From Ignavibacteria bacterium (GTDB lineage Bacteria; Bacteroidota; Ignavibacteria; Ignavibacteriales; SURF-24), in assembly GCA_025612245.1 (NCBI GenBank), contig JAAXKQ010000015.1, positions 69,362-133,361 of the forward strand: a DNA stretch of 64,000 nucleotides. The letters run 5' to 3'. Shown here in pieces: positions 3,177 to 60,325 of this stretch. The notes below the pieces were generated by a model that was not told the origin of the DNA, did no database searches, and saw only the letters and a list, made by a program, of their open reading frames with translations. Made by a program: the position numbers and the translations under genes. Every line of letters begins with the position of its first letter. Position 1 is the stretch's first letter.

Positions 3177-4751
3177 ATGAAAAGGCTTTCTTATTACCTA
3201 CTATTCATTCCCATGGTTTTCTTTGGCTGCGGTTCTTCTGGCTCCTCGGGGAAAAATGGCATTGACCTTATTACCTCCGAACTGATGAAAAAACATATTT
3301 CCTTCCTTGCTTCCGATTCGCTGAAGGGAAGGAAAACTCCAGGTGAGGACCTTGATAAAGCCGCCCGCTATATCGCTGAGGAGTTTAAGAGCCTGGGACT
3401 AAGCCCCGTCAATGGAAGCTATTTTCAGACTGTACGCCTGGGGACAATTGACCTCGGGAAGGATAACCGGCTTATAATAAAAAGAAATGGGGCGGATCAT
3501 GCCTTCAGCATAAAAACTGAATTTACCCCGCTTGAGATGACCGGCAGTATGGAAGTCACCTCAGCCATAGTTTTCGCCGGCTACGGCATTACTGCGCCGG
3601 AACTTAAGTACGACGACTATAACGGCCTCGACGTCCAGGGAAAGGTTGTCTTCATCTTACGCCATTGCCCTCGCGAGAACGACCCCGCCTCCGGATTTTC
3701 TTCCGAAAGCGCACTCAAGTATAGCCGGGTAAATACAAAGGTCGATAACGCAATCAAACACGGCGCCAAAGGGATCATTCTTGCAACCGACCCCCTGAAC
3801 CATTCCCTTTTAAGCCCGAGGGGCTTCCCTTGGCCCTCGCTTTCATCTTTTATTCCCAGGGACGCACTTCCTACAACTCTCCTTACCGATGAAAAGGATA
3901 AGATCCCTGTCGTGCAGGCGGGAAGCGAAGTGGTAACGGAACTCTTCGGCTCCGTGGAAAACCTGAAAAGCCTGGAAAGTAAAATTGATTCGGAATTAAA
4001 GCCGGTTTCTTTTGAACTCGAAGGACTTTCAGTCCTGCTCAAAACAACGACCGAGGTAACCGAGACCCCCGCTTTTAACGTTGTTGGCTATCTCCAAGGC
4101 TCCGATCCCGCCTTAAAGGATGAACTGGTAATAGTTGGCGCCCATTACGACCACGTCGGCTTCAGGAAAGAACACTCTCCGGGCGAAGATTATATCTATA
4201 ATGGCGCCGACGATAATGCTTCCGGCACCAGCGGCGTACTGGCCCTTGCCAGGGCATTTGCCTCACTGGAGGCCAGACCCAAAAGAAGCCTCCTTTTTAT
4301 TACCTTTGCCGGCGAGGAGCTCGGACTTCTGGGCTCAAGGGCTTACACAGACTCTCCACTTTTCCCCCTTGAGAAAACTGAGGCCATGCTGAACATGGAT
4401 ATGATCGGGCGCAACAACCCGGACTCGCTTTATATTATTGGAGCTTCAGTCTGCCCCGAGCTAAATGAGCTGAATAAGGAGGAAAACAGGAAAATCGGCT
4501 TTAAGCTCGGCTACAGCCTCGATAAATTCCTCGAGGCTAGCGACCATGCTTCCTTTATGCATAAGGGTGTCCCCGTTTTGTTTTATAATACGGGCGAGAC
4601 TAAGGACTACCACCACGTTAGCGACGAAACTTCTACAATTGACATGGAAAAGGCAGCCAGGGTATCTCGACTTGTCTTTCTGACAACCCTCAGGATTGCC
4701 GGGGACAGTAAATTCGACAGATCTTTTTATAAACCAATTTCACATAAATAA
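3177..4751 (+). CDS. M28 family zinc aminopeptidase with PA domain, lipoprotein
   Basis: Lipobox FFGCGSS. Zn-ligand motifs HYDHVG, NGADDNASG, EELGLLGS and HHVSDE, as in M28 peptidases. Confidence 0.85.
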   Translation: MKRLSYYLLFIPMVFFGCGSSGSSGKNGIDLITSELMKKHISFLASDSLKGRKTPGEDLDKAARYIAEEFKSLGLSPVNGSYFQTVRLGTIDLGKDNRLIIKRNGADHAFSIKTEFTPLEMTGSMEVTSAIVFAGYGITAPELKYDDYNGLDVQGKVVFILRHCPRENDPASGFSSESALKYSRVNTKVDNAIKHGAKGIILATDPLNHSLLSPRGFPWPSLSSFIPRDALPTTLLTDEKDKIPVVQAGSEVVTELFGSVENLKSLESKIDSELKPVSFELEGLSVLLKTTTEVTETPAFNVVGYLQGSDPALKDELVIVGAHYDHVGFRKEHSPGEDYIYNGADDNASGTSGVLALARAFASLEARPKRSLLFITFAGEELGLLGSRAYTDSPLFPLEKTEAMLNMDMIGRNNPDSLYIIGASVCPELNELNKEENRKIGFKLGYSLDKFLEASDHASFMHKGVPVLFYNTGETKDYHHVSDETSTIDMEKAARVSRLVFLTTLRIAGDSKFDRSFYKPISHK

Positions 4752-4765
4752 CAGGAGAGACCATT

Positions 4766-5605
4766 ATGAAGAAGGCCCTGCCTCTGATTTTATCCGCGCT
4801 TTTTGTTTTTTCTCTGCTCTCGGTAAACCTGAACGCCCAGGAGAGCTACAAACTTAAATATAACTTCCAAAAGGGTAAAACCTATAGTTTCCTGAGCACA
4901 ATGGACGGCAACTTTACTCAGGAGGCCATGGGCACTGAAATGAAAATGAGCGTCAACGGCAACTTTAGCGTAAGCATGAAAGTAGATGACGTTAAAGACG
5001 GCAAAGCCGAACTGATTACCGCTCTCGATTCCGGGAGGATTTCCACCAAAAACCCGATGAAAGACACTACCTTGTCACTTGCCCCTTTTGCAGGCAAAAG
5101 GATCAAACTCACCATGCTCGAAGACGGGACAATTGAACAAACCAGCATCATAGATTCAATAAAGTTTTTCAATGTTACGGGACTTTCACAGAATAACCTG
5201 ATCCGCTTCATTAAGCTCCCTAAAGGGGAGGTAAAACCTGGCGTTCCATGGAACATGGTATCAAACGATACAGTTGAAATGATGGGCGCCGGAAAAATGA
5301 CCAATACCATCAACTCTACCTATACCATCGTTGGAAAAGAAAAGGTCCGGGGACACGAATGCCTTAAGGTTACCTATACGGGCGACGTAAAGAACAGCGG
5401 ACAGACTCAGGTGATGGGTATGAACCTGGTAATCGAGGGAACAGGCAAGATATCGGGCAGCCTGTACTTCGATCCTGTAATGGGTATGGCAATTAAAAAC
5501 GACGGCAGCATGGATAACGAAATGACCATGGCCGCTACGGGCCAGCAGAACATGATTATGCCTATTACACAATCTGTAAAGACTTCCATCTCCCTGGTCG
5601 AGTAA
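4766..5605 (+). CDS. secreted hypothetical protein (signal peptide; possibly DUF6263-like)
   Basis: Cleavable signal peptide (LSVNLNAQE), good RBS AGGAGAG, no recognisable catalytic motif. Beta-rich composition. Confidence 0.5.
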   Translation: MKKALPLILSALFVFSLLSVNLNAQESYKLKYNFQKGKTYSFLSTMDGNFTQEAMGTEMKMSVNGNFSVSMKVDDVKDGKAELITALDSGRISTKNPMKDTTLSLAPFAGKRIKLTMLEDGTIEQTSIIDSIKFFNVTGLSQNNLIRFIKLPKGEVKPGVPWNMVSNDTVEMMGAGKMTNTINSTYTIVGKEKVRGHECLKVTYTGDVKNSGQTQVMGMNLVIEGTGKISGSLYFDPVMGMAIKNDGSMDNEMTMAATGQQNMIMPITQSVKTSISLVE

Positions 5606-35267: not shown

Positions 35268-35815
35268 TGTCTTTAGCCCCCGGGAACCATGAATTCCCCT
35301 CATCCATAAAATCTAAACCAACAGAACAATGCATCACCCAAGCTCCGGAAGGAGCGCTTTGTCTGTAGAAAACACCGGTATCCCCCTAAATTCCAGAGCT
35401 CCGAATGGAGCGACTTTTATCTTACTTACTATTGGATAAATATATCATTGAACCATGACCCCACACACATAAAAACCATCCCGTCAAAACAACCGAGAAT
35501 TATCTTAAATATCCATTACACAAAACGCACAATCAGGGAAATGAAAAAGAACATGCAACCGCTATGGGCGGTAGGGAAAACTTCTTTTGTAACCATTTCT
35601 ACAAACATGCTACCGCTAAAGCGGTAGAAATCCCAACACATTTACACCCGACCACATTGCTTCCATTCATAATTCCTCTGTGCCGCTCCTGACCGGAGCT
35701 TTGTGTATTGTTGGTGGAATCCTTTTTCCCCGGGGTTCAGTCGCCCCCATCCGGGGGCTTCCTCACCCCGGGCTACTGATGTTACGCCCGCGCTGCGGGC
35801 TTAGTCATTCCATAA
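35268..35815. repeat. copy B of mosaic hairpin-module repeat, modules in both orientations
   Basis: 35268-35425 matches copy C forward (…aaatctaaaccaacagaacaa…caagctccggaaggagcgctttgtctgtagaaaa). 35765-35805 is the reverse complement of C 63705-63745 (ctaagcccgcagcgcgggcg…cagtagcc). Confidence 0.7.
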
Positions 35816-36100
35816 TTCCAAACTCCCAGCCTTCATGGTTGTTTCCTTCCCCCTCCACCTTTGCCTTTTCCTAAACCTAGAACCTTGAACTTTGAACCCT
35901 TTTCACACTTAAAACTCAAAACTTAAAATTATTCCCCCCACTTAAAAGAAAAGCCCATACATACGCATGGGCTTAAACGGAGAAAGTATTACTTCAAATA
36001 ATCTACTCACGAAACTATTTTACTAATTTCTTCTACTTTTACTTTTTCTACTCTTTCCTCTTTTAGTACTTCAAAAAGAAAAAAGTTCCAGCTTTTTTTT

Positions 36101-48501: not shown

Positions 48502-48556
48502 ACACTAAAGTAGAACTAAAAATCAAAAAGTGGAAGGATTTAGCAGCGAAAATATT

Positions 48557-48660
48557 AAGTTTTAAGTTTTAAGTTTTAGGTTATAATTTTTAATTTCCAA
48601 TTTCCAATTTCCAATTTTTAATTTTTAATTTTTAATTTTTAATTTTTAATTTTCCCCCCT
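48557..48660. repeat. cluster of AT-rich simple-sequence repeats upstream of the SBP gene
   Basis: (aagtttt)x3, (ttccaatt)x3, (tttttaat)x5, then C6. Confidence 0.8.
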
Positions 48661-49938: not shown

Positions 49939-50011
49939 GCACCCTTAGCTCAGCTGGTAGAGCATCTGACTCTTAATCAGCAGGTCGCCGGTTCGAATCC
50001 GGCAGGGTGCA
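49939..50011 (+). tRNA. tRNA-Lys (anticodon CTT)
   Basis: Manual cloverleaf. Acceptor gcaccct/agggtgc, D-stem gctc/gagc, anticodon loop cuCUUaa, T-arm gccgg-ttcgaat-ccggc. CCA is not encoded. Confidence 0.9.
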
Positions 50012-50015
50012 CTGC

Positions 50016-50050
50016 TAAAAGCTTCAGTTTCGCAAGAAACTCGAAGCTTT
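50016..50050 (+). terminator. terminator after tRNA-Lys
   Basis: aagcttcagtttcgcaagaaactcgaagcttttttt. Confidence 0.6.
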
Positions 50051-50173
50051 TTTTATTTTAAACCTGACTTTATTCATACTAACCCGGATCGTCTCCGTCA
50101 GCATAAATAAGCCTCCTCTCAATCCCATAAATACTAAGGCCCGCCATAAAGACAGGCCCTAATGAACCTTTTT

Positions 50174-52072
50174 TTAATTTAAGCTTACCTGCGTACCCGC
50201 CTCTTCGGCAGGAGCTTCACCGCTTGGTCCGGCTTCAGCTCCTTTCGGCAGCTTATCCTTTATAATCATCGCAAGAAGAGTATTCACAAGCGAGTTTCCA
50301 TCTGCTCCGCTTCCGCTGCCTCCGGCTACAATGTCCGGAACAAGCTTAAATCCGCTCGTGGCTAGCGCCTTTGCTACTTCTATTGCCGCATAGTTGCCCG
50401 ATTCCATCGACTTTATCTTCATCGTTATAACGTCAGCTTCAGCCGTACCAACAGCCTTGATCTTATCTCCCTCGGCAGCACCTACGGTCTTTAATACCAT
50501 TGCATCTGCTTCGGCATTGATCTTCTTCGATTCTGCCGTACCGCCTGCACTCTTTACAGCCGCCTGCGCTTCAAATTCGCTGATCTGCACTTTACGTTCC
50601 GCATCAACTACCCTCGCCTGCGTATCGGCAAGTGCCCTTGCCTGCTGAAGCTCCTTGCGCGTATCTTCCGCAAGCCGCTGTGTATCGTAAGTAACTTTCT
50701 CCTGCTCCGCTATCTTGCGGTCCGTTAGCGTCTTCATGAGCTCTTCCGGCGGCACTATGTCGCCTATTAAAGTATCAACTGCGCCAACGTTATAATCCTG
50801 CAGCGCTCTTGATATGCTCTGCCTTGCGTCATCCTGACGCTCCTTACGGCCTTTGAGGAATTCAATTACATCAGACCCCTGTGCCGTATTGCGGAAGTAA
50901 TTGCCAATTGTGGGCTCAAGCACCTGCGTAACCAGATTCGCCACGCTTCCGAAACGCGCAATTACCTTCGGGGCATCGGTGCTTGGAATGTGTATAATCT
51001 GACTTACGTCAAGACTGAATGTAAAGCCGTCGGAGGAGCGGACTTTAATTGTTGAGAGCTTTTCATCAAGCTTGTGCGATTCGGTTTTGCCGGTAGCCCA
51101 GTTGAGTACTACGTTCGCTGTAGGCACAATCTCTACTTTATGAGTATATGGATTAATAGGATACTTTCCCGGATCAAGCGGCTTAACCCAAACACCCTTC
51201 TGTCCCCTGCTTACAAGATTTCCATGCTTGAATGTTTCACCCGTAACGTCCACTCCCATATCGCCCACATAGGCAATTACAACGCCCACGTTTGCAATAG
51301 GTACGGTAGTCATTTCTTTGATTTCTACTGTTGCAAATCTTGGATTGATGTAATAACGCCCGGCCAGAATCACCTGCTCCTGAAGTCCCTTGTAGCCGCC
51401 GTTATCGAGGAATATCTGCCCGTCCTGGAAGCTGTTATGCCCGGGTATTTCACGGCCTGCAATTTCTCCGGTCTGCAGCGGCAGGCCTTCGCGTGTAGTA
51501 ACAATGCCCACCATATTGTCATCAATTTCAAGCGCCGCTTCTTCAACAACAGTGAATAGTGAAGTATTGATGCGGTAAGTACCCGGCGGAATAATGGTAA
51601 TTTGCGGACCGCGTTCGCCTCCGTTAAGAAGGAAGTCGCGTGCGCTCTGGAATGAATCGCAGTTCACCTTCTTGGCAAGCACGCGTCCGTCCTTAAGAGG
51701 ATGACCGTCCCTTGCCTCAACGATGCCGATATTGCCTTCTTTGATGTTGATGAATTTCTGTTTGGTAACTTCATACTGCCAGGGCCAGAGCCAGAAATGG
51801 AGCCCCGGCGCAAGAGTATCTGCCTGGTAGCCGGCCTCGCCATTCAGTGCTATAATAGCCCCGTCGGGGAGCATGCGGTGTTTGCCCAGAAGTACGAACT
51901 TTTTATTAACAATGCCTATTGAGTCTTCAGGAATAATAACAATTCCGAAGAATCGTAAAATCAATTTGTTGGCTACTATGAGAAGAATAATAACTATAAT
52001 CCACCAGTAGCTGCCCAGGAAATTTGCCAGTCCCACGTTGCGGCTCCTATAATTGTGATAAAAATACGACAT
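50174..52072 (-). CDS. flotillin family (SPFH/band-7) membrane protein
   Basis: N-terminal TM, SPFH domain, C-terminal Ala/Glu-rich coiled-coil flotillin repeats. 632 aa. Confidence 0.8.
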   Translation of the reverse strand: MSYFYHNYRSRNVGLANFLGSYWWIIVIILLIVANKLILRFFGIVIIPEDSIGIVNKKFVLLGKHRMLPDGAIIALNGEAGYQADTLAPGLHFWLWPWQYEVTKQKFINIKEGNIGIVEARDGHPLKDGRVLAKKVNCDSFQSARDFLLNGGERGPQITIIPPGTYRINTSLFTVVEEAALEIDDNMVGIVTTREGLPLQTGEIAGREIPGHNSFQDGQIFLDNGGYKGLQEQVILAGRYYINPRFATVEIKEMTTVPIANVGVVIAYVGDMGVDVTGETFKHGNLVSRGQKGVWVKPLDPGKYPINPYTHKVEIVPTANVVLNWATGKTESHKLDEKLSTIKVRSSDGFTFSLDVSQIIHIPSTDAPKVIARFGSVANLVTQVLEPTIGNYFRNTAQGSDVIEFLKGRKERQDDARQSISRALQDYNVGAVDTLIGDIVPPEELMKTLTDRKIAEQEKVTYDTQRLAEDTRKELQQARALADTQARVVDAERKVQISEFEAQAAVKSAGGTAESKKINAEADAMVLKTVGAAEGDKIKAVGTAEADVITMKIKSMESGNYAAIEVAKALATSGFKLVPDIVAGGSGSGADGNSLVNTLLAMIIKDKLPKGAEAGPSGEAPAEEAGTQVSLN

Positions 52073-52467
52073 AGAAACTAGATAATTCCCCGTTAATTAG
52101 CAAAGGACTAAAACTTTTCCAATTCCTTCTCTCTGGCTCTTGGTTCTGTGAAAGCTTCACATGAAGGAATTCTAATAGCCTGATATTCGTCTCCGGCATA
52201 TTTTGAGTCGAAAAGCCAGGGGAGCATTCCCGCCGGGTCGTTCAATAAGTAAGGCAATAATGCCCCCAGACTTTTCAATTGCATCAATTGCTTAATATGG
52301 GTATTTATACCCTTTCAGGTATAGTTTAGGTTAATTATCTTGTTTTATACCTTATTGGGTATAATTTTTGCAAAAACACTTGATATTATACCCGAGGTGT
52401 TCAGCCGAAACTTTCTCTTGAAATTGAAAGAGCAGGAAAGGATAGACATAATAAAAGGTTTACAATA

Positions 52468-53172
52468 GTGGGCCTTTGGGGCAATTTCATTTTAAAGCCT
52501 CCAATGGAGGAATATTTTCAGATGCCGGAAATTGAAGATCTGACAATGCATCTGTCTGAGATGTTAAAAATCAGAACAGCTGAGCATACGTTAATACGCC
52601 TTAATTCCGGTGAGCTTGCTTATTTATCAAAACGCTTCGACCGAACCGCAAAAAATAAACTTCAGCTTAAGGATATGGCACAGCTTACCGGTACTCTTAC
52701 AGAACGTAAATACAAAAGTTCCATGGGAAAAATCGGCAAAACAATACTTAAATATTCAAGCTATCCGAAATTTGACCTCCTGACATTTTTCGAACTCACG
52801 GTGTTTTCTTTTCTGACGGGAAACGCAGATATGCACCTGAAGAACTTTTCTCTTCTTACAAACAACGAAGACGAGGTAATGCTTTCTCCAGCTTATGACC
52901 TGCTTTCAACAAAGCTCCTTATTCCGGAAGATACAGAAGAAATGGCTCTTACGTTAAACGAAAAGAAAAGCAATCTTAAGAGAAGGGATTTTGACACGTT
53001 TGCTGAATCACTTCAGATAAACAGCACGTCTGTAAACAACTCATACCGGAAGTTTTTTAGCAGTGAACCTATGATACTTGAGTTTATCGATAAAAGTTTT
53101 TTACAGCCAGAACTCAAAGAGGCTTATAAAAAGCTCTATTCAGAAAAGATTGAAAAACTTAAAAATCAGTGA
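52468..53172 (+). pseudogene. 5'-truncated HipA-like Ser/Thr kinase toxin gene (C-terminal catalytic half only)
   Basis: AYLSKRFDR, DMHLKNFSLL and SPAYDLLS are collinear with E. coli HipA RFDRR / DGHAKNFS / PFYDIIS. The upstream GAQEK P-loop region is absent. Operator-like palindromes sit upstream. Confidence 0.55.
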
Positions 53173-53610
53173 TAAATTGGTAGTATCTAGAATTTAGTGT
53201 AAATGATTTATAATTCAATCCCGGAACGTAGCCCCGAGGGGCGGACAGCGGAGGGATTAAATTTACAGCGACTCTGGAAGTTAACCAGAGGAATTAATAA
53301 ATTAAATCATCTACAAGGAAGAGAGATTATCTCTCTTCTCTATACAGCTTCCCATGCAAGATTATTGAGCAGGTGGTTCATTTTGACTAGGCCCTCAAGT
53401 TCAAGGTCCTTACTCATTATAAGATTATGCATCTGGGCTATAGCATTGGAATTTGACAGCTCGTATTCAAGATTAGATTCTGAGTCATCAACTACTTTAC
53501 AGGCTTTTCTAATGTACTTCTATGCTTTTCAAAGAAAGCTTTAGCTGAAATTACTTCCTTCTTGTCATTCGGCAGTCAAACACCTCCTTAAGACCAGCAA
53601 GATAATATCC

Positions 53611-53997
53611 TCAGTAATAAATAAGATCCTCGTCTTTTTCATCGAACTTCAGGATATTGCTGAAATAGCTTGAGATGCTATTCTTCATAATAACAGGGTC
53701 CTTGGGCTTTACTAATATAAAGTAGTAGCCCGTTTTTTCTTCTTCATATTCTGACCATTTGCTTATTTCTCTAAAACCACTACAATCAATCAATTGTTAG
53801 TCACTGTTACCTATCCAATAATACCCATGACTGTCTTTTGATGCAATAACCATCCAATGTTCTTCATTCTCAACCCTTGCGATGATAGGATAGCCTGTTT
53901 CCAAAGTTTTGCCTATTGCCATCTTGACTTTGGCTTCCTCTTTAATATCACATACCACCGATTCAAGGTCGAACTTGTTTAAGACACGACGAATCAC
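53611..53997 (-). pseudogene. disrupted ORF remnant (two adjacent same-strand fragments separated by a stop)
   Basis: Track ORFs 53797-53997 and 53611-53793 share a strand and are adjacent. Motifs GYPIIARV...HWMVIASKD...NSD are faintly papain/C39_2-like. Confidence 0.25.
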
Positions 53998-54334
53998 ACC
54001 CGCAGATGTACCATATTTTTTGTGACACTTGCGGCCCTATGGCCCATTTCGGAACTTATCGGAAAGCCTAATACAAGTGCTAAGTGTAAAATGGCGTACT
54101 CCCAGCAATCGCCATAGACTTCCTGGTACTTAAACCATACTAGTTCCCTTCGCTTTTAAGTAAGCGGATTAGTTTTTTAATCATTTCATTTACTCCGATT
54201 AGTGATTATAAGGATTTGCCGGGCTTTCCTTTTACTGACATTCTACTTATCCCACTTTTATCCACAGAGAAAATGAAGTAATATACCAGTACTTTTATAA
54301 AATTTTATGGAGTGGACTTCATAATGATGTTAAT

Positions 54335-54367
54335 CTAAAAATAAAAGGGAGATATACTCCCTTTTAT
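54335..54367. terminator. hairpin terminator at the 3' end of the OLD gene
   Basis: aaaagggagatatactcccttttattta. Confidence 0.5.
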
Positions 54368-56263
54368 TTAGCTCTCAATCTCTGCCTTGACAGTATTAAT
54401 AACCATCGGACGCTGCACAAATTCATTAACTCTTCTTAATATATTACGAAGTTCATCCTGAGGATCCCTAATACTGAGAAGTTCTGGAGTCATGTGCTTA
54501 ACTGCCAAAGCATTAAGCCACTTCTTGCATGCAGATTCTTTTTTCTTTTTATTCTCATCATCTAAGCTATCCCATGAATTTGGTGAATCGCTATTTTCCA
54601 ATAGCTTTTGTGCAGCCATTATTGGAACATCATCAAAATCTCCAAACGCAATAACAACTTCTGGCCGAACCCTTTGAACGGCTGTAGGATGAAGGTAGTT
54701 TTCAATCTCTAACTTGGATAAAATATATGCTTCACAGTTGTCTCTGAGATTAGTTTCATCGGCATTTTTTTTGTATTTGGGTTCTTTAGGAGGTATAGTA
54801 TCCCTGTCATAAATATGAATTTCGGGACGATTAAAGCCTTTCAGCCTACTGGTCCAAAGAGCCAGATTAGATCCCCCAAATGGAATGAATATTACAGAAC
54901 CAGCATTTTCCAGATCTTCAAGGTTAGGTATGTCTGGTTCTGTTTGCGCAAGTACCTTAGATATCTCCTTAAAAAAGTTTATATCATTTGGCCCTTCAAC
55001 GCATAAAAACAACTTAACATCATGATCAGCTAATATCCCAAGATCTTTAATTATTCTTTTAATTGTTTCATCATCATCTTTGTGCAGTATTCGCTTCTTA
55101 TCTGCTGTTTTTTCAATATATCTTATGGAGGAAGATGGTATTAAGCGGGCTAATGTAGGCGTGTGTGTAGATATTATCACCTGGCAGTTAGAATTATGGA
55201 CCAATTCAAACAAAGATTCAAGCAACATAACTTGGTTTGTCGGATGCTGAGAGGTTTCTGGTTCTTCAATCGCATATATAATACCTGGCGAATTCCGCTC
55301 GATAGCCTGTTGTTCTGCCTTAGCCCTAAAAAAGTTAATTAAAATTAATCTTCTGACACCACTACCTCGCTTGTTGACAGGGACCTGTGTTTCATCAGTC
55401 AAACTTACCTTAAATATCTTGTCCCATGCAGAATCCAATACTTTCGGGTTTAACTCACTTGCCAGATCTGGATCCATTTCCTTTAATTTGTCAACCGTTG
55501 CCTTACTTACCTTTTCAACTTTCTCCTTAACATTTTGTATAATTTTATCAAGATCGTGCCTTTGGCTTTCCAAAGCTTCTTTGATTGCGACCTTCATAGG
55601 GTCCTGCGCTTCATTGTCCTGGTCTGTGCTTTCTCTATCAGATTTAAACAATGCAAATAAGGGCATTTCTGATTTAATTTTATCCCACATTCTTTTCTGA
55701 TCTTCATCTTTATCTTTTAATTGTATTCGTTGTTCGGCCAATTCAAGATCTGGAAATGAACTCCATATTTTTTGTCTTATCTCGGCCTTAATTGTTTCCT
55801 TAACATCATCAAGACTTACCCCAATATCCTTTGCCCTTTTTCTTAGCTGTGTAATTGTTAGTTGATATAAATCATTGGCATTATCGATGCTAGGATGCAG
55901 AGAATTGAGATAGACTTCCTTTGGCTTTGGTTTTCCACCAGTATATACTTTCACAACTACTAAATTCCCATTTGAATTTAGTAAATACTCATCCTTAAGA
56001 TCTACTACATTTGTTGCATCAATTATTAATGTTTGCGGCACTTCAGTAAATTCACAAGTGATAGTTATATCATCAGAGGCGGAACCAACGCTGATATCGC
56101 CTTGATCCAAAGAGGTATCATTAAAGAATACATTCATTGCATCTAAAATGGCCGACTTACCCGAATCATTCTTAGCAATTAAAGTCGTAAAGTCGTCAAA
56201 CTCAATTTTGAATTTTTCTTTGTAGCATCTGAAGTTTTCAATGGTTAAGGAAACCAGTTTCAT
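54368..56263 (-). CDS. OLD-family ATP-dependent endonuclease (ABC-type ATPase + C-terminal Toprim), standalone class-1-like
   Basis: N-terminal IENFRCY...KNDSGKS Walker A of AAA_15/21 OLD ATPases. IEEPETSQHP signature-like motif. C-terminal Toprim with CVEGPND and YDRD. Confidence 0.8.
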   Translation of the reverse strand: MKLVSLTIENFRCYKEKFKIEFDDFTTLIAKNDSGKSAILDAMNVFFNDTSLDQGDISVGSASDDITITCEFTEVPQTLIIDATNVVDLKDEYLLNSNGNLVVVKVYTGGKPKPKEVYLNSLHPSIDNANDLYQLTITQLRKRAKDIGVSLDDVKETIKAEIRQKIWSSFPDLELAEQRIQLKDKDEDQKRMWDKIKSEMPLFALFKSDRESTDQDNEAQDPMKVAIKEALESQRHDLDKIIQNVKEKVEKVSKATVDKLKEMDPDLASELNPKVLDSAWDKIFKVSLTDETQVPVNKRGSGVRRLILINFFRAKAEQQAIERNSPGIIYAIEEPETSQHPTNQVMLLESLFELVHNSNCQVIISTHTPTLARLIPSSSIRYIEKTADKKRILHKDDDETIKRIIKDLGILADHDVKLFLCVEGPNDINFFKEISKVLAQTEPDIPNLEDLENAGSVIFIPFGGSNLALWTSRLKGFNRPEIHIYDRDTIPPKEPKYKKNADETNLRDNCEAYILSKLEIENYLHPTAVQRVRPEVVIAFGDFDDVPIMAAQKLLENSDSPNSWDSLDDENKKKKESACKKWLNALAVKHMTPELLSIRDPQDELRNILRRVNEFVQRPMVINTVKAEIES

Positions 56264-56464
56264 ATTGACTCCCAGAATAGTATGACAAATGAGTTAATAG
56301 TGAACTATATTCGTGTTCGTTTTTAAGCCATTGTTTTAGAGAATGAATGGAATCACTAAGGAATCAGAATATATAGTAGGAAAAGACAGGCCTTGTTCAT
56401 GGTGTCAGAGTATTTTTTAGATCGGCAGTTAAATTAATATTTATTTTAATGTTAAACAAATTAA

Positions 56465-56492
56465 TCGCCGGTTCGAATCCGGCAGGGTGCAC
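56465..56492 (+). repeat. attR-like direct repeat: copy of the 3' 28 nt of tRNA-Lys
   Basis: Identical to 49985-50012 and followed by a related terminator hairpin. Confidence 0.8.
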
Positions 56493-56874
56493 CAGAAAGC
56501 TTCCGTTCCGCAAGAATTTCGAAGCTTTTTATTTTTATCCTGCGCCGTAGAATTAGATAAGCCCCTTACAACTGCCATGAAATGGCCTTTTATGGAAAAA
56601 CCAATGATGATTAACCTGGGGGCATTTTAATCCTTTCTGATACCCTTTATTGCCATGCTTTTTAAATGCCTCGTGCAATGTGGCGTTGAATCGCCCCAAT
56701 TTTTATGATTATACTTTCCTTATCTTACCTTTTGGCATTTAATTATTATTATCTAAATTTGGGAACAAAAATTCTCCATATGCGTTTTTGTTTCCTTAAA
56801 GATAAGTGACAGATCAGAACCTATTAAACTCTTGGCAACACATATAAAACGCGGCTATATAATTGAGGTTAATA

Positions 56875-57720
56875 ATGATTGTAGGTAAAACAATTCAGAT
56901 ATTTCTTCCTGACGCTAACCCCAGAAGCGTTAAAATTGCAGAAATAACCAGCCGGACCGTTCAGGCGATACTAATCCCAAGAACAAAACTGGATTATATT
57001 TTTGCAAGGGAAGAATTGAATAATGTTGGGGTGTATCTCCTCATTGGAAACCCCGATGAAGACGTAAAACCTTTATTATATATTGGCGAGGCAGAAGATT
57101 GCAAAATCCGGCTTAAACAGCATAATGCTTCAAAAGACTTTTGGAATTACGCAATTGCAATAATCTCCAAAACTCACTACTTCACAAAAACCCACATTAA
57201 ATTTCTTGAATCATTCATGTATCAGGAAGCTAAAAGAATTAACAGATATAAACTGGAAAACAGCACTAATCCCACAATGCCTTATGTATCGGAATCCATG
57301 ACGGCAGATTTAATGGATAACTTTGATACGATAAAAATTCTGGTTTCAACGCTTGGGTTTCCGGTATTTGATGAAATAAAAACAGAACAGAAAGCCGATT
57401 TACTTTACTGTAAAGGCAAAGACGCACATGCAACCGGCCAGCTGACCGATGAAGGCTTCTTGGTATTTTCCGGGTCAAAATGCAACCTGAAGGAAGCAAA
57501 TACCCTTCCCCCATGGGCCACAAAAATGCGCAGGAGACTGATTGAAGAAAAAATATTGCAAGTAAAAGATACCGTGATCGAATTTGCTTCGGACCATCTG
57601 TTTGATTCCCCAAGCGCCGCGGCCACCGCCGTTTTAGCGAGAAATGCAAATGGATGGATAGAATGGAGATATAAGAACAGAAAAACTCTGGATGAAGTAA
57701 AAAGGCAGATTAAAGTATAA
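56875..57720 (+). CDS. GIY-YIG nuclease domain protein with C-terminal DUF4357-like domain
   Basis: GVYLLIGN...LLYIGEAEDCKIRLKQH...N matches GIY-(10)-YIG...R...H..N spacing. C-terminal NGWIEWRY motif. AT-rich like the adjacent island. Confidence 0.65.
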   Translation: MIVGKTIQIFLPDANPRSVKIAEITSRTVQAILIPRTKLDYIFAREELNNVGVYLLIGNPDEDVKPLLYIGEAEDCKIRLKQHNASKDFWNYAIAIISKTHYFTKTHIKFLESFMYQEAKRINRYKLENSTNPTMPYVSESMTADLMDNFDTIKILVSTLGFPVFDEIKTEQKADLLYCKGKDAHATGQLTDEGFLVFSGSKCNLKEANTLPPWATKMRRRLIEEKILQVKDTVIEFASDHLFDSPSAAATAVLARNANGWIEWRYKNRKTLDEVKRQIKV

Positions 57721-57949
57721 AAGGGGACTCGTTTACCCTCCTTGCCCCCTGCTTCTTTATTACAGTAATTTTTAGCCTAAACACGGTAATATTTGCCTTC
57801 AAACGGTAATCCTAACTGCCGTTCCTTACCCCATATTCATTCCGTGCCATGCATAATTTTCAGCAAAAACTTTTTTATGCCTCATCGGGTATAATAACGG
57901 TTCTGCCGCTTCTCCTTGCCTCCAACCGGAGCCCTCCTGCCCCCTTCCT

Positions 57950-60325
57950 CTATTTGCACCGTATTACCATAATCGTTACGTCATCTTCCAACTGCGCTTC
58001 CCCTGCCCAGGAACGACTCTTACTGCATATGTATTCTATTATCTCCCCTGCCGGCTTCTCAGCCGATTCCCTGAAGGCTTCTGCCGCCCTCTCCATCCCA
58101 AATGTCTCCTTGCTTTCATTGAACATCTCAATTAAACCGTCACTCATAACCAGTATCACGTCACCATGGCATAATTCAGCCGTAAGTTTTTTGTACGGAA
58201 AATCATTGAACGCCCCGAGAGGCATCCCCTTTACCAGTAACTCCTCAACCTCGCCCGTTTGCTTCCTGTAAATCTGCATCGGCGGCATCCCGGCCGATAC
58301 ATACTCAATTTTATTTCCATCTATCCTTAATAACGACATGCACATCGTCAGCATGTACAGGTTCATCTGCTTTATTGACCGGTTGAATGAATTCATTATC
58401 TCAATCAGGCTTTCCTTATGAGCCAGAGTGTTGAATAACCCCTTTGCCAGAATTACCATGTTCCCTGCTTTCAGGCCGTGCCCCGTTGCATCCCCGATAA
58501 CCGCCGTAAGACGCCTGTTTTCTCCCGCGTGAAAATCGTAATAATCGCCTCCTACTTCTGTTGCCGTCTTCATGTAACAGGCAATCTCCAGGTTCTCTGC
58601 CTGAGGCACATCCCGCGGTAGCAGCGATAACTGCAGTTCCCGCGCCGCATCTAGCTCTTTTGTCTTTCGCTGGCTCTCTGCTTCAATCAGCCTCCTCTCA
58701 ATCTCAAGCGACGCGGCAACCCTCTCCTGCTCAATTGCTTTTTCCGATAAATCCTTCACTTTCTCAAGCTGCCACTCCAGGTCTTTATTGATCGTTGCAA
58801 AATTATATGACAGGTACAGCGACATCGCTATTACAAAACCTATCATTCCGTAAACATATACCTGCTGAAGCCCGAAGACGTCCATTATCGAAAAGTCCAC
58901 CAATAGCTGCAGTATAATGGAAACGCTCATTACCAAAAAGCCGGGTATAATTATCCAGGTACCTCTGTGGCATATCTTGTCCTTCCTGAACCCCGCATAA
59001 AACCCTTCAATGAGCGTAAAGGAAAACTGAAAATAAATAAAGTACGATGTTACACTCGGGGAAATGTCCAAAAATCCCGACACGGAAACCGCAATGTATA
59101 GCGCCAGGTACAGGACCCACCTTTTGGGAAGTCTCTCGTAGTTGAAGGAATATAGCGTAAGTACTGCAAAAAAGATGGCCGTGGAGGCCGATAATACGTT
59201 CAGCCGCTGAAGAAATACCATCATTGCGGCGTCTTCAATCATGAAGCGCTCATAGTTGAAATACGTCAACCCCGCAAAGCCTAAAAGGCATATTGCATAG
59301 TAAAGGTTCTGCTTCTGCCTCCTGAAAAAGAAAAAAAGAGATAGATGCAGAAAGGATAATATTAACGGTATAAGAGTAAATACCATCTGGTGAATTGTAT
59401 ATGGCCGCAGCGCTTCAGTTGAATTGAATGCTGAGTTAAGGTCAATGAGCAGAATTGAAAACCCGGCATCAAACCCCTGATTCCTCTGCGTGGCTGCTTC
59501 ATAGTTTGCATACCTGACCGCAATTACCTGCTCTTCTTTGGGATCGAATGTAAATTCCATCCAGTTGTTTTTGGGAGCGGGTGAGTACCCGGAGTCCTTT
59601 GGCGCAACTTTCCCGAATTTTTTAAGCAGCCGCCCGTTGTAATAAACTTCCGACGCCCCAAACTGCGTCAGCTTAAACCCTACGGCCTTATTCCACAGCG
59701 CCTTGTCCACGTGCAGGCGTGCCCTGAACCATCCGGTATTCTTCCAGTTCAGATCATAGTAATTCTCGCTTACAAAGTTGGAGGAGGCGGTTTTCCAAAG
59801 ACTGTCATTCAGGTCCGCCCGGGCCCACTCGGCGTTATCTCCCTCGTGGTACTTCCAGTTATTTACAAACCTTATCCCGCTCTGGGCCCCGTATATGTAC
59901 TCCGGCGTTACATTTCTTGCACCTACGTATTTTCCCCAGTTACTTATCTTTATTATAACCGTGGTATCTTTCCTAACCTTCAGCCTGGCGTTATCCAGTA
60001 TCCAGCCGTCGGCGTTGAGCGCTTCCGAGTTCCAGCTTCCAAGCGTAAGCTTAAACTCCAGGCTCTCGCCTTCTTTGAACTGAAGAGTTTTTGTCCATAC
60101 CGAATCCGACTGCCTCTCAAGCCTTACGGCAGCGGGGTTCCATTTCCCAAGCCCGGTGCTGCTGCCCGTAAGAAAGACGTCATCCGAACGCAACGCTTTT
60201 TGGGAAATTACCTTAAAGCTTACCAGCTTCTTTTGTCCGGAAGGTACACTGCATCCGGCGCTGAACAGACAGACACAAAATAAAGCTGTAAGGCAAAACT
60301 TAAATTTCCTGCGGAATACAAACAT
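57950..60325 (-). CDS. 7TMR-DISM sensor with N-terminal CBM20-like module and C-terminal PP2C/SpoIIE-type serine phosphatase
   Basis: Signal peptide, starch-binding-like beta-sandwich, 7TMR-DISMED2-like extracellular domain, 7 TM helices, coiled coil. PP2C motifs GDYYDF, DATGHG and MSDGL. Confidence 0.75.
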   Translation of the reverse strand: MFVFRRKFKFCLTALFCVCLFSAGCSVPSGQKKLVSFKVISQKALRSDDVFLTGSSTGLGKWNPAAVRLERQSDSVWTKTLQFKEGESLEFKLTLGSWNSEALNADGWILDNARLKVRKDTTVIIKISNWGKYVGARNVTPEYIYGAQSGIRFVNNWKYHEGDNAEWARADLNDSLWKTASSNFVSENYYDLNWKNTGWFRARLHVDKALWNKAVGFKLTQFGASEVYYNGRLLKKFGKVAPKDSGYSPAPKNNWMEFTFDPKEEQVIAVRYANYEAATQRNQGFDAGFSILLIDLNSAFNSTEALRPYTIHQMVFTLIPLILSFLHLSLFFFFRRQKQNLYYAICLLGFAGLTYFNYERFMIEDAAMMVFLQRLNVLSASTAIFFAVLTLYSFNYERLPKRWVLYLALYIAVSVSGFLDISPSVTSYFIYFQFSFTLIEGFYAGFRKDKICHRGTWIIIPGFLVMSVSIILQLLVDFSIMDVFGLQQVYVYGMIGFVIAMSLYLSYNFATINKDLEWQLEKVKDLSEKAIEQERVAASLEIERRLIEAESQRKTKELDAARELQLSLLPRDVPQAENLEIACYMKTATEVGGDYYDFHAGENRRLTAVIGDATGHGLKAGNMVILAKGLFNTLAHKESLIEIMNSFNRSIKQMNLYMLTMCMSLLRIDGNKIEYVSAGMPPMQIYRKQTGEVEELLVKGMPLGAFNDFPYKKLTAELCHGDVILVMSDGLIEMFNESKETFGMERAAEAFRESAEKPAGEIIEYICSKSRSWAGEAQLEDDVTIMVIRCK

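Follow-up and report, generated by a model that had tools for sequence, protein, structure and literature searches.

The 64,000-nucleotide stretch of Ignavibacteria bacterium DNA analysed here (hereafter the window) carries a tRNA-Lys(CTT) gene whose 3' end recurs downstream as an exact 28-nt direct repeat. To judge from its sequence, site-specific integration at the T-stem/3' end of the tRNA gene has probably left this locus as its remnant, now decayed and mosaic. A first-pass annotation had read the repeat-bounded segment as one tRNA-targeted island devoid of a visible integrase. At least two events are needed to account for it, namely one or more integrations and a deletion or replacement of the end that would have carried the integrase. 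A full tRNA gene accompanied by a direct terminal 3' fragment downstream is the standard signature of tyrosine-integrase insertion, a principle on which Islander is built (PMC4383910). RNA genes were annotated with ARAGORN and Rfam, and proteins with Pfam, PADLOC, NCBIfam and PHROGs. Related loci are designated by numbers (L006, L007, L008, L011, L022 etc.), and the features of the locus are collected in Table 1.

The tRNA-Lys(CTT) gene scores 73.2 bits against Rfam RF00005 (gathering score 29). The tRNA proper stops at the discriminator base (50011), no CCA being encoded, and is then followed by C-TGCTAAAAG. The repeated 28-mer (TCGCCGGTTCGAATCCGGCAGGGTGCAC) is composed of 27 nt of tRNA plus one extra base. 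It occurs exactly twice, both times on the + strand, with 6452 bp between the two copies, against 0 occurrences expected by chance; the perfect recurrence described in the first-pass annotation is borne out. No third copy was found with up to 3 mismatches allowed, and 100 shuffles gave 0 matches. The distal copy is a terminal, not an internal, piece of the tRNA, reaching the discriminator base and one base beyond, and lies in a non-coding stretch where a six-frame Pfam search gave no match. ARAGORN proposed a 'tRNA-???' with a 4-base anticodon at 56410-56494 (fold z = -1.9); this was rejected as an artefact, the genuine displaced T-arm/acceptor fragment having been combined with AT-rich upstream DNA. 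Searching for other non-coding RNAs with Rfam at E <= 1 returned the tRNA plus chance-level matches only.

The likeness of the two copies extends about 50 nt beyond the tRNA, with 41/49 aligned positions identical (z = 10.9 against shuffles). As had been noticed from the sequence, homologous yet diverged terminator hairpins follow both copies, each with a T-run; the hairpin after the full tRNA folds at -17.1 kcal/mol (z = -4.7) and that after the distal copy at -11.9 kcal/mol. Identity is uneven, being 28/28 in the tRNA part and 41/49 in the adjoining terminator. Under a uniform decay of 16% (calculated from 41/49), 28 unchanged bases would have a probability of about 0.008. Such a pattern favours a recombination core whose flanks came from different sources over a decaying duplication. 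A tandem tRNA-Lys duplication, of which the second gene would later have had its 5' two-thirds deleted or overwritten, accounts for a likeness that does not stop at the tRNA but takes in the terminator, over about 80 nt altogether. Besides the uneven identity, it has to face a fragment starting at the T-stem region, which is a crossover class tabulated by Islander (PMC4383910), and the compositionally foreign DNA between the copies. Moreover, no relative with two tRNA-Lys genes at the locus was found; what relatives do have at the same gene is an integrase element and fragments of the att type. We regard such a duplication as highly improbable.

The two copies of the core differ in the tail that follows. 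At the distal copy, the C that closes the core (56492) and the CA starting at 56493 make up an encoded CCA, and the copy runs into CCAGAAAG, matching the tRNA-Lys genes of L006 and L007, both of which are followed by GCACCAGAAAC. The full gene runs into CTGCTAAAAG. Because its CCA-GAAA tail matches these relatives, the distal copy would be the displaced original 3' end of the chromosomal tRNA gene, and the tail of the full gene would be element DNA. This assignment, made from the tail sequences, is moderately secure.

L006 (DATAKL010000033) and L007 (JBLMYS010000013, the record of which bears the label Acidobacteriota) are Ignavibacteriales-type metagenome-assembled genomes (MAGs) and the nearest relatives by genome. 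The window itself is 100% identical to contig Ga0395530_000002 (575 kb) of the JGI metagenome 3300038998. The upstream gene order HAD hydrolase, periplasmic binding protein, 222-aa open reading frame (ORF), 103-aa ORF, tRNA-Lys is kept in L006 and L007 with 55-79% amino acid identity; for the periplasmic-binding-protein gene, identity to the window is 76% in L006 and 79% in L007. In total, tRNA-Lys(CTT) stays beside the periplasmic-binding-protein gene in 6 related loci, and L006-L011 share a conserved upstream flank. Of the genes downstream in the window, none was found within about 8 kb of tRNA-Lys in L006 or L007. In L006, the tRNA 3' end is the exact point at which GC drops, the values being about 0.45 before it and 0.27-0.31 after it. 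A 324-aa tyrosine integrase (Pfam Phage_integrase, 2.4e-16; phrog_1, 2.8e-43) is encoded there at a distance of 1-2 kb, with transcription running towards the tRNA, within a run of small co-directional ORFs, one of which is a weak replication-initiator match. In L007, two extra tRNA-Lys 3' fragments, which lie downstream of the full gene at distances of 3.5 and 5.2 kb, bound a low-GC islet without an integrase. PADLOC gave no match on the islet genes of L006 and L007. The L006 integrase element and the L007 fragments thus identify tRNA-Lys as a recurrent integration site in the closest relatives. In the more distant L008, L011 and L022, the tRNA is followed by housekeeping genes (release factor, OmpA-family protein, sensor kinases), with no GC shift and no extra fragment, and the downstream flank differs from that of the window. 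In the comparison with related genomes for an empty tRNA-Lys site, proposed in the first-pass annotation, the nearest relatives share the upstream flank only, and the distant ones differ downstream.

The two L007 fragments (3234-3300 and 4868-4925) reach back to an anticodon-loop-like CTCTTAAT, and both have a similar inserted hairpin (ATCCCGA...GGGA) replacing the variable region. Their sequences suggest that they come from one element family with an attP mimicking the tRNA 3' half, and with a crossover unlike the T-stem type of the window.

A further observation concerns the points at which public Logan contigs of 100% identity to the window (L002, L004, L005) end. These contigs stop at 49984, one base before the core, and at 56141. 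The same contig ending at 49984 was seen in 3 samples, and contigs ending at 56141, inside the OLD-family nuclease gene, in two runs. Logan assemblies use a k-mer size of k = 31. The 28-nt repeat is shorter than k-1, so that the repeat itself should not cause a contig break. Strain heterogeneity at the locus is a possible reason for these ends.

No tyrosine or serine recombinase was found in the window by Pfam on all ORFs, in agreement with the first-pass annotation. Stop-masked six-frame Pfam searches at E <= 1 over 52040-54400 and 56240-56900 returned HipA_C only, and tblastn of the L006 integrase against the whole window gave no match; the stretch 53173-54367, singled out earlier as a place to look for integrase remnants, thus yielded none. 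Nor does a recombinase figure in the precomputed Pfam lists covering genes up to about 10 kb away on both sides. PHROGs revealed no phage structural, lysis or replication genes. The OLD, PDC-S14 and HipA_C proteins described below match PHROGs families of unknown function only, apart from a weak endonuclease match of PDC-S14 (E = 3e-4), and the SPFH domain matches a 'lipoprotein' family. A prophage remnant is thus not supported, no pieces of such genes having been seen either. An intact parent element was likewise sought and rejected: IMG/VR gave no relative of the OLD protein and no match to the 28-mer, and no plasmid match for the region was found.

Table 1. Features of the tRNA-Lys(CTT) locus, with positions in the window
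Feature	Position	Strand	Evidence
tRNA-Lys(CTT), target gene, probably regenerated (attL side)	49939..50012	+	ARAGORN; Rfam RF00005
Core copy 1, 28 nt: last 2 nt of variable loop, T arm, 3' acceptor strand, discriminator, +1 base	49985..50012	+	exact repeat
Terminator hairpin and T-run after the full tRNA; putatively element-supplied (P' arm)	50013..50066	+	fold, alignment
SPFH/Band-7 flotillin-like YqiK-type membrane protein, 632 aa	50174..52072	-	Pfam Band_7 1.6e-28
Junction of host-like and low-GC blocks, without recognisable gene, att-like or recombinase remnant	52073..52383	.	six-frame Pfam, alignment
5'-truncated HipT-type (HipA_C) kinase pseudogene	52384..53172	+	Pfam HipA_C; PDB 8EZR
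Orphan 113-aa ORF, low GC	53203..53544	+	no family match
Broken ORF, 79-codon and 60-codon pieces in one frame, stop at 53794-53796	53611..54036	-	translations
Intact OLD-family nuclease with ATPase and putative Toprim domains, 631 aa, stand-alone, class-1-like	54368..56263	-	Pfam AAA_15 1.2e-75; motifs
Core copy 2, putative displaced tRNA-Lys 3' fragment (attR side)	56465..56492	+	exact repeat, same orientation
CA-GAAAG, then terminator hairpin; putative original chromosomal tRNA tail	56493..56542	+	sequence, alignment, fold
GIY-YIG/DUF4357 protein, candidate defence system PDC-S14	56863..57720	+	PADLOC PDC-S14; Pfam

Base composition was compared with 2-kb windows taken outside the locus, of which the GC is 0.462 +/- 0.026 (minimum 0.410). 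The region 52107-56464 has a GC of 0.366 (z = -3.6), below every background window. The AT-richness from about 52100, judged earlier by eye and for which a GC profile had been called for, is therefore real. The tract does not end with the segment, however; it passes the distal repeat and runs on to about 57700, with a GC of 0.394 (z = -2.6) over 56493-57949. At the other end, it begins at about 52100, at the 5'-truncated HipT-type kinase gene. The flotillin block between the full tRNA and this point (50135-52106) has a GC of 0.49 and a GC at third codon positions (GC3) of 0.50, like the flanking genes; the GC3 of the OLD gene is 0.31. Given this host-like block, and a low-GC tract that starts at the truncated kinase and crosses the distal repeat, the repeat-bounded segment does not hold together as one island.

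We propose the following course of events. A tyrosine-integrase element would have recombined its attP site, consisting of a copy of the tRNA 3' end plus terminator, with the tRNA gene. The functional tRNA would have been regenerated from element DNA (attL, 49939-50066), and the original 3' end would have been pushed to the far side along with the terminator and the CCA encoded there (attR, 56465-56542). A later deletion or replacement would have removed the integrase-proximal end and left the 5'-truncated hipT-type gene at about 52384 as its scar; a 2-kb host-like block with the SPFH/flotillin gene would now stand where the integrase is expected. The truncation of hipT at the junction of the two blocks argues that the deletion or replacement happened there, and this was likely when the integrase end went missing. 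Beyond attR, the low-GC DNA with PDC-S14 would most simply be a second, older insertion at the hot spot, the distal end of which is no longer recognisable. The order of these events and the ancestral side are what we infer from the arrangement.

The same junction can also be explained by tandem accretion. An older flotillin islet, bounded by tRNA-Lys and its fragment, would have received the low-GC element in the fragment, which contains the whole core, and not in the full gene. A later deletion would have cost the locus its inner att copy and integrase, as well as hipB/hipS and the 5' part of hipT. This accounts for host-like DNA near the tRNA with low-GC DNA distal to it, and for a truncation exactly at the block junction. 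Multi-fragment arrays do form at this site, as L007 shows, and accretion next to a resident element, at either of its att sites, has been documented for pairs of cis-mobilizable elements (CIMEs) and integrative and conjugative elements (ICEs) (PMC6323972). Yet an inner att remnant is not detectable at 52073-52400: local alignments of the tRNA and terminator at the junctions scored within the range of shuffles. Six-frame Pfam at E <= 1 gave no match over 52073..52383. The low-GC PDC-S14 gene beyond attR would need still another event. Although the present data do not separate accretion from integration followed by replacement, we hold it to be unlikely.

The flotillin gene sits in the slot where L006 carries its integrase. 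Homologues of about 600 aa with 70-95% identity are found in MAGs labelled Bacteroidota, Spirochaetes, Syntrophothermus, Ignavibacteriaceae and a candidate phyla radiation (CPR) lineage, and also in 8 IMG/VR contigs. At every locus examined (L042-L051, L060, L062-L065), the gene stands by itself, and the neighbourhoods are unrelated. Similarity this high across phyla points either to frequent transfer or to very strong constraint. Despite its host-like GC and GC3, the tetranucleotide profile of the gene is atypical for the window (correlation 0.57 versus 0.82 +/- 0.06). The N-terminal 290 aa have no family assignment, and PADLOC gave no match for this SPFH gene, which has no known defence role. 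We considered the gene as a discrete mobile unit, since its DNA likeness to L050 stops about 35 bp on either side; this was rejected, because at 83% identity such an edge is what ordinary intergenic divergence produces.

Several observations weigh against the integration-and-replacement history that we favour. The GC borders and the repeat borders disagree at both ends, with an offset of about 2 kb on one side and of about 1.2 kb on the other. With a host-like flotillin block and low GC across attR, a single-island model fails and extra events have to be assumed. No third att-like remnant marking the second insertion was found, either with <=3 mismatches or by local alignment. A strict empty site, with tRNA-Lys joined to the window's downstream flank, was not found in any relative by a genome scan, a metagenome scan (best matches 48-55% identical) or look-ups of SpoIIE orthologues. 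The reading of the locus as a tRNA 3'-end integration scar is supported by the direct terminal fragment and by the use of the same site in L006 and L007, and falls short at this point. The full-tRNA terminator is closer to the L007 distal and L006 terminators (z = 6.2 and 4.2) than the attR-side terminator is (z = 3.7 and 0.2), and in its T-rich part it resembles the terminators of the relatives at least as well as the distal one does. The choice of ancestral side accordingly rests mainly on the CCA-GAAA tail. Finally, the window's locus is flanked by a SpoIIE-domain phosphatase gene (57950-60325), and the L007 genome has a flotillin gene 3.4 kb downstream of its SpoIIE orthologue, the two being oriented to each other as they are in the window. 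This copy, which is cut by the contig end, has 95.7% identity over residues 7-262. Because of this linkage, the flotillin gene may be an old chromosomal neighbour rather than cargo. Together with its host-like composition, this speaks against the listing of flotillin as plain island cargo in the first-pass annotation.

The flotillin-SpoIIE linkage also speaks for an import of the low-GC DNA. A single piece reaching from the truncated hipT to PDC-S14, with OLD, the tRNA fragment and its terminator inside it, would have been gained, by homologous or illegitimate recombination, from a related strain with an island at its own tRNA-Lys. The recipient would have had the order tRNA-Lys, flotillin, SpoIIE, and the repeat would not have been made by integration in this genome. 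The low-GC tract is indeed unbroken across the fragment, from 52107 to about 57700, the GC and GC3 of the flotillin gene are host-like, and the full-tRNA terminator looks native to the clade. However, the donor must have had an identical 28-nt tRNA end and a similar terminator, and would itself still need a tRNA-Lys integration event. The L007 flotillin gene is not within 8.4 kb of tRNA-Lys, and in every other genome examined flotillin stands in unrelated contexts, so that the linkage may be weak evidence. An import of this kind seems improbable to us. All three histories (integration and replacement, accretion, import) fit the observations; all include integration at tRNA-Lys and at least two events.

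Beyond the junction, the low-GC tract opens with the kinase gene. Its HipA_C match (9e-40) covers profile positions 5-203, and its closest solved relative is the Legionella HipT(Lp) 8EZR (7.7e-47), query residues 20-255 aligning with 71-308 of the 312 residues of the chain. Homology begins directly after an in-frame TGA (52381-52383). No ATG, GTG or TTG precedes the GTG at 52468, which lies downstream of the Gly-rich-loop motif GVQPK; this motif therefore cannot be translated. Relative to 8EZR, the N-terminus is short by about 50-75 residues. No hipB or hipS is present upstream of the kinase, where neither an ORF nor a Pfam match was found. The gene, already described as truncated in the first-pass annotation, is by these features a 5'-truncated pseudogene, its break coinciding with the start of the low-GC tract.

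Two small ORFs follow. The 113-aa ORF has no match in Pfam, PADLOC, NCBIfam or PHROGs. For the broken ORF, a whole-library phmmer search gave only 36-37% matches to proteins of 150-272 aa, the best Pfam matches of which are the sub-threshold Peptidase_C39_2 and BtrH_N, i.e. a faint papain-like C39/BtrH-like likeness. As this faint C39-like similarity is all that it shows, the broken ORF was rejected both as a recombinase and as a conserved partner of OLD.

The OLD-family gene is the only intact notable cargo, and the one clearly intact foreign gene of the segment. The family assignment made from the sequence holds. Besides Pfam, the protein matches the Old, AriA and GajA ATPase models of PADLOC, and among solved structures it best matches the Thermus scotoductus class 1 OLD (6P74, E = 1.3e-18). 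ATPase motifs (Walker A G35-K36-S37, E333-E334-P-E336, H367) and Toprim-type motifs (VEGxND with E423, G424 and D427; DRD with D486 and D488) are invariant in 25 homologues. The C-terminal 230 aa align significantly with nothing in Pfam or PDB, and it is by the motifs that they are assigned as a putative Toprim domain. The neighbouring DNA holds pseudogene fragments and non-coding DNA only, with no UvrD-like helicase, retron reverse transcriptase or AriB. Homologues (identity <=62%) occur in unrelated contexts; those in Desulfocarbo and in metagenome contigs lack a conserved partner. Because the gene stands alone and its homologues have no conserved partner, it is class-1-like in the context-based scheme (PMC10568477).

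The PDC-S14 gene lies outside the repeat-bounded segment and inside the low-GC tract (GC 0.392). The PADLOC match is full-length (PDLC04925, 4e-108; protein residues 4-281 against 12-296 of the 301 model positions), and Pfam gives DUF4357 (6.4e-18) plus GIY-YIG. In the L006 genome, a homologue with 84% amino acid identity (L058, DATAKL010000022, 5193-6032) lies 4 kb upstream of the SpoIIE orthologue and has an AAA_21 ATPase and a type I restriction hsdR gene as neighbours. In the L006 genome too, the surroundings of SpoIIE are thus a site of defence genes, but on the other side of the gene. For both OLD and PDC-S14, an anti-phage role is putative.

With this gene content, the segment should be unable to move by itself and would work as a fixed defence islet. 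As both 28-nt cores are intact, it could alternatively be a CIME-like hitchhiker moved by a related integrase, for instance one of the L006 type; by analogy with known CIMEs this is conceivable, though unlikely. If true, the integrase-less, fragment-bounded islets at tRNA-Lys in two Ignavibacteriales genomes would be defence cassettes shuffled in trans at one hot spot, and the contig ends at 49984/49985 and 56141 might mirror differences of this kind between strains.

Two other repeats were seen in the window. A 7-nt tandem array of about 14 copies (variants TTAATTT, AAGTTTT, AATTTCC), followed by a C run, occupies 48555-48653, between the start of the periplasmic-binding-protein gene and the stop of the 222-aa ORF. 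A mostly intergenic direct repeat of about 630 bp (88.6% identity) is found at 35311-35921 and, about 28 kb apart, from about 63908 onward; its second copy extends past the window end (L003:5790-6418).

The locus is ordinary, a common kind of genomic scar with no new mechanism and nothing departing from known biology. Its value lies mainly in annotation. It flags tRNA-Lys(CTT) as a hot spot of integration within an uncultured lineage of Ignavibacteriales, and explains the cluster of defence genes and pseudogenes beside tRNA-Lys, including an intact stand-alone OLD nuclease, a kind of protein of which few examples in defence are known (PMC10568477, PMC12392090). It also illustrates that integrase-less repeat-bounded segments can be mosaics with att and GC borders in disagreement. 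Tools requiring an integrase, such as Islander, would miss such a locus, and tools using GC only would misplace its borders.

Compared with the islands catalogued by Islander, the locus shares the full tRNA with a direct 3' fragment downstream, a 3' end that would be element-supplied, a fragment start in the T-stem and much compositionally foreign content. Orientation, the end fragment and the 6.5-kb size (range 2-200 kb) all agree with what Islander looks for. It differs in having no integrase gene inside, so that the Islander filter would reject it, in GC borders that are off the att borders, and in an attP-derived arm that carries a whole host-like terminator. CIMEs, the integrase-less derivatives of ICEs and of integrative and mobilizable elements (IMEs) still carrying attL and attR (ICEberg 2.0, PMC6323972), offer another comparison. 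The locus agrees with their description (integration and transfer genes lost, attL and attR kept) as judged on the core only: no integration or transfer genes are present at the locus, the cores are 28/28 intact by sequence, the site is reused in the clade, and fragment arrays exist in a neighbouring genome. In contrast to CIMEs, there is no known parent ICE or IME and no evidence of conjugation genes near the locus; the integrase element of L006, unlike ICEs, looks like a phage or satellite, with its phrog_1 integrase and weak replication-initiator match.

At the level of single genes, the kinase retains the HipA_C core of HipBST/HipT systems, whereas a complete frame with the Gly-rich loop, hipB and hipS are absent. 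The OLD protein shares with class 1 OLD nucleases (P2 Old; TsOLD 6P74; PMC10568477) the N-terminal ABC-type ATPase, the C-terminal Toprim acidic motifs and the single-gene organisation; it differs in length (631 aa versus 528 aa for TsOLD), and its sequence alignment to 6P74 covers the ATPase motifs only. Set beside defence islands and defence-carrying integrated elements (PMC10201445), the islet is very small, with half of it pseudogenes and one third a host-like SPFH gene; what it shares with them is a cargo made up mostly of defence-type genes, with the OLD nuclease, the HipT-type remnant and the adjoining PDC-S14 gene.

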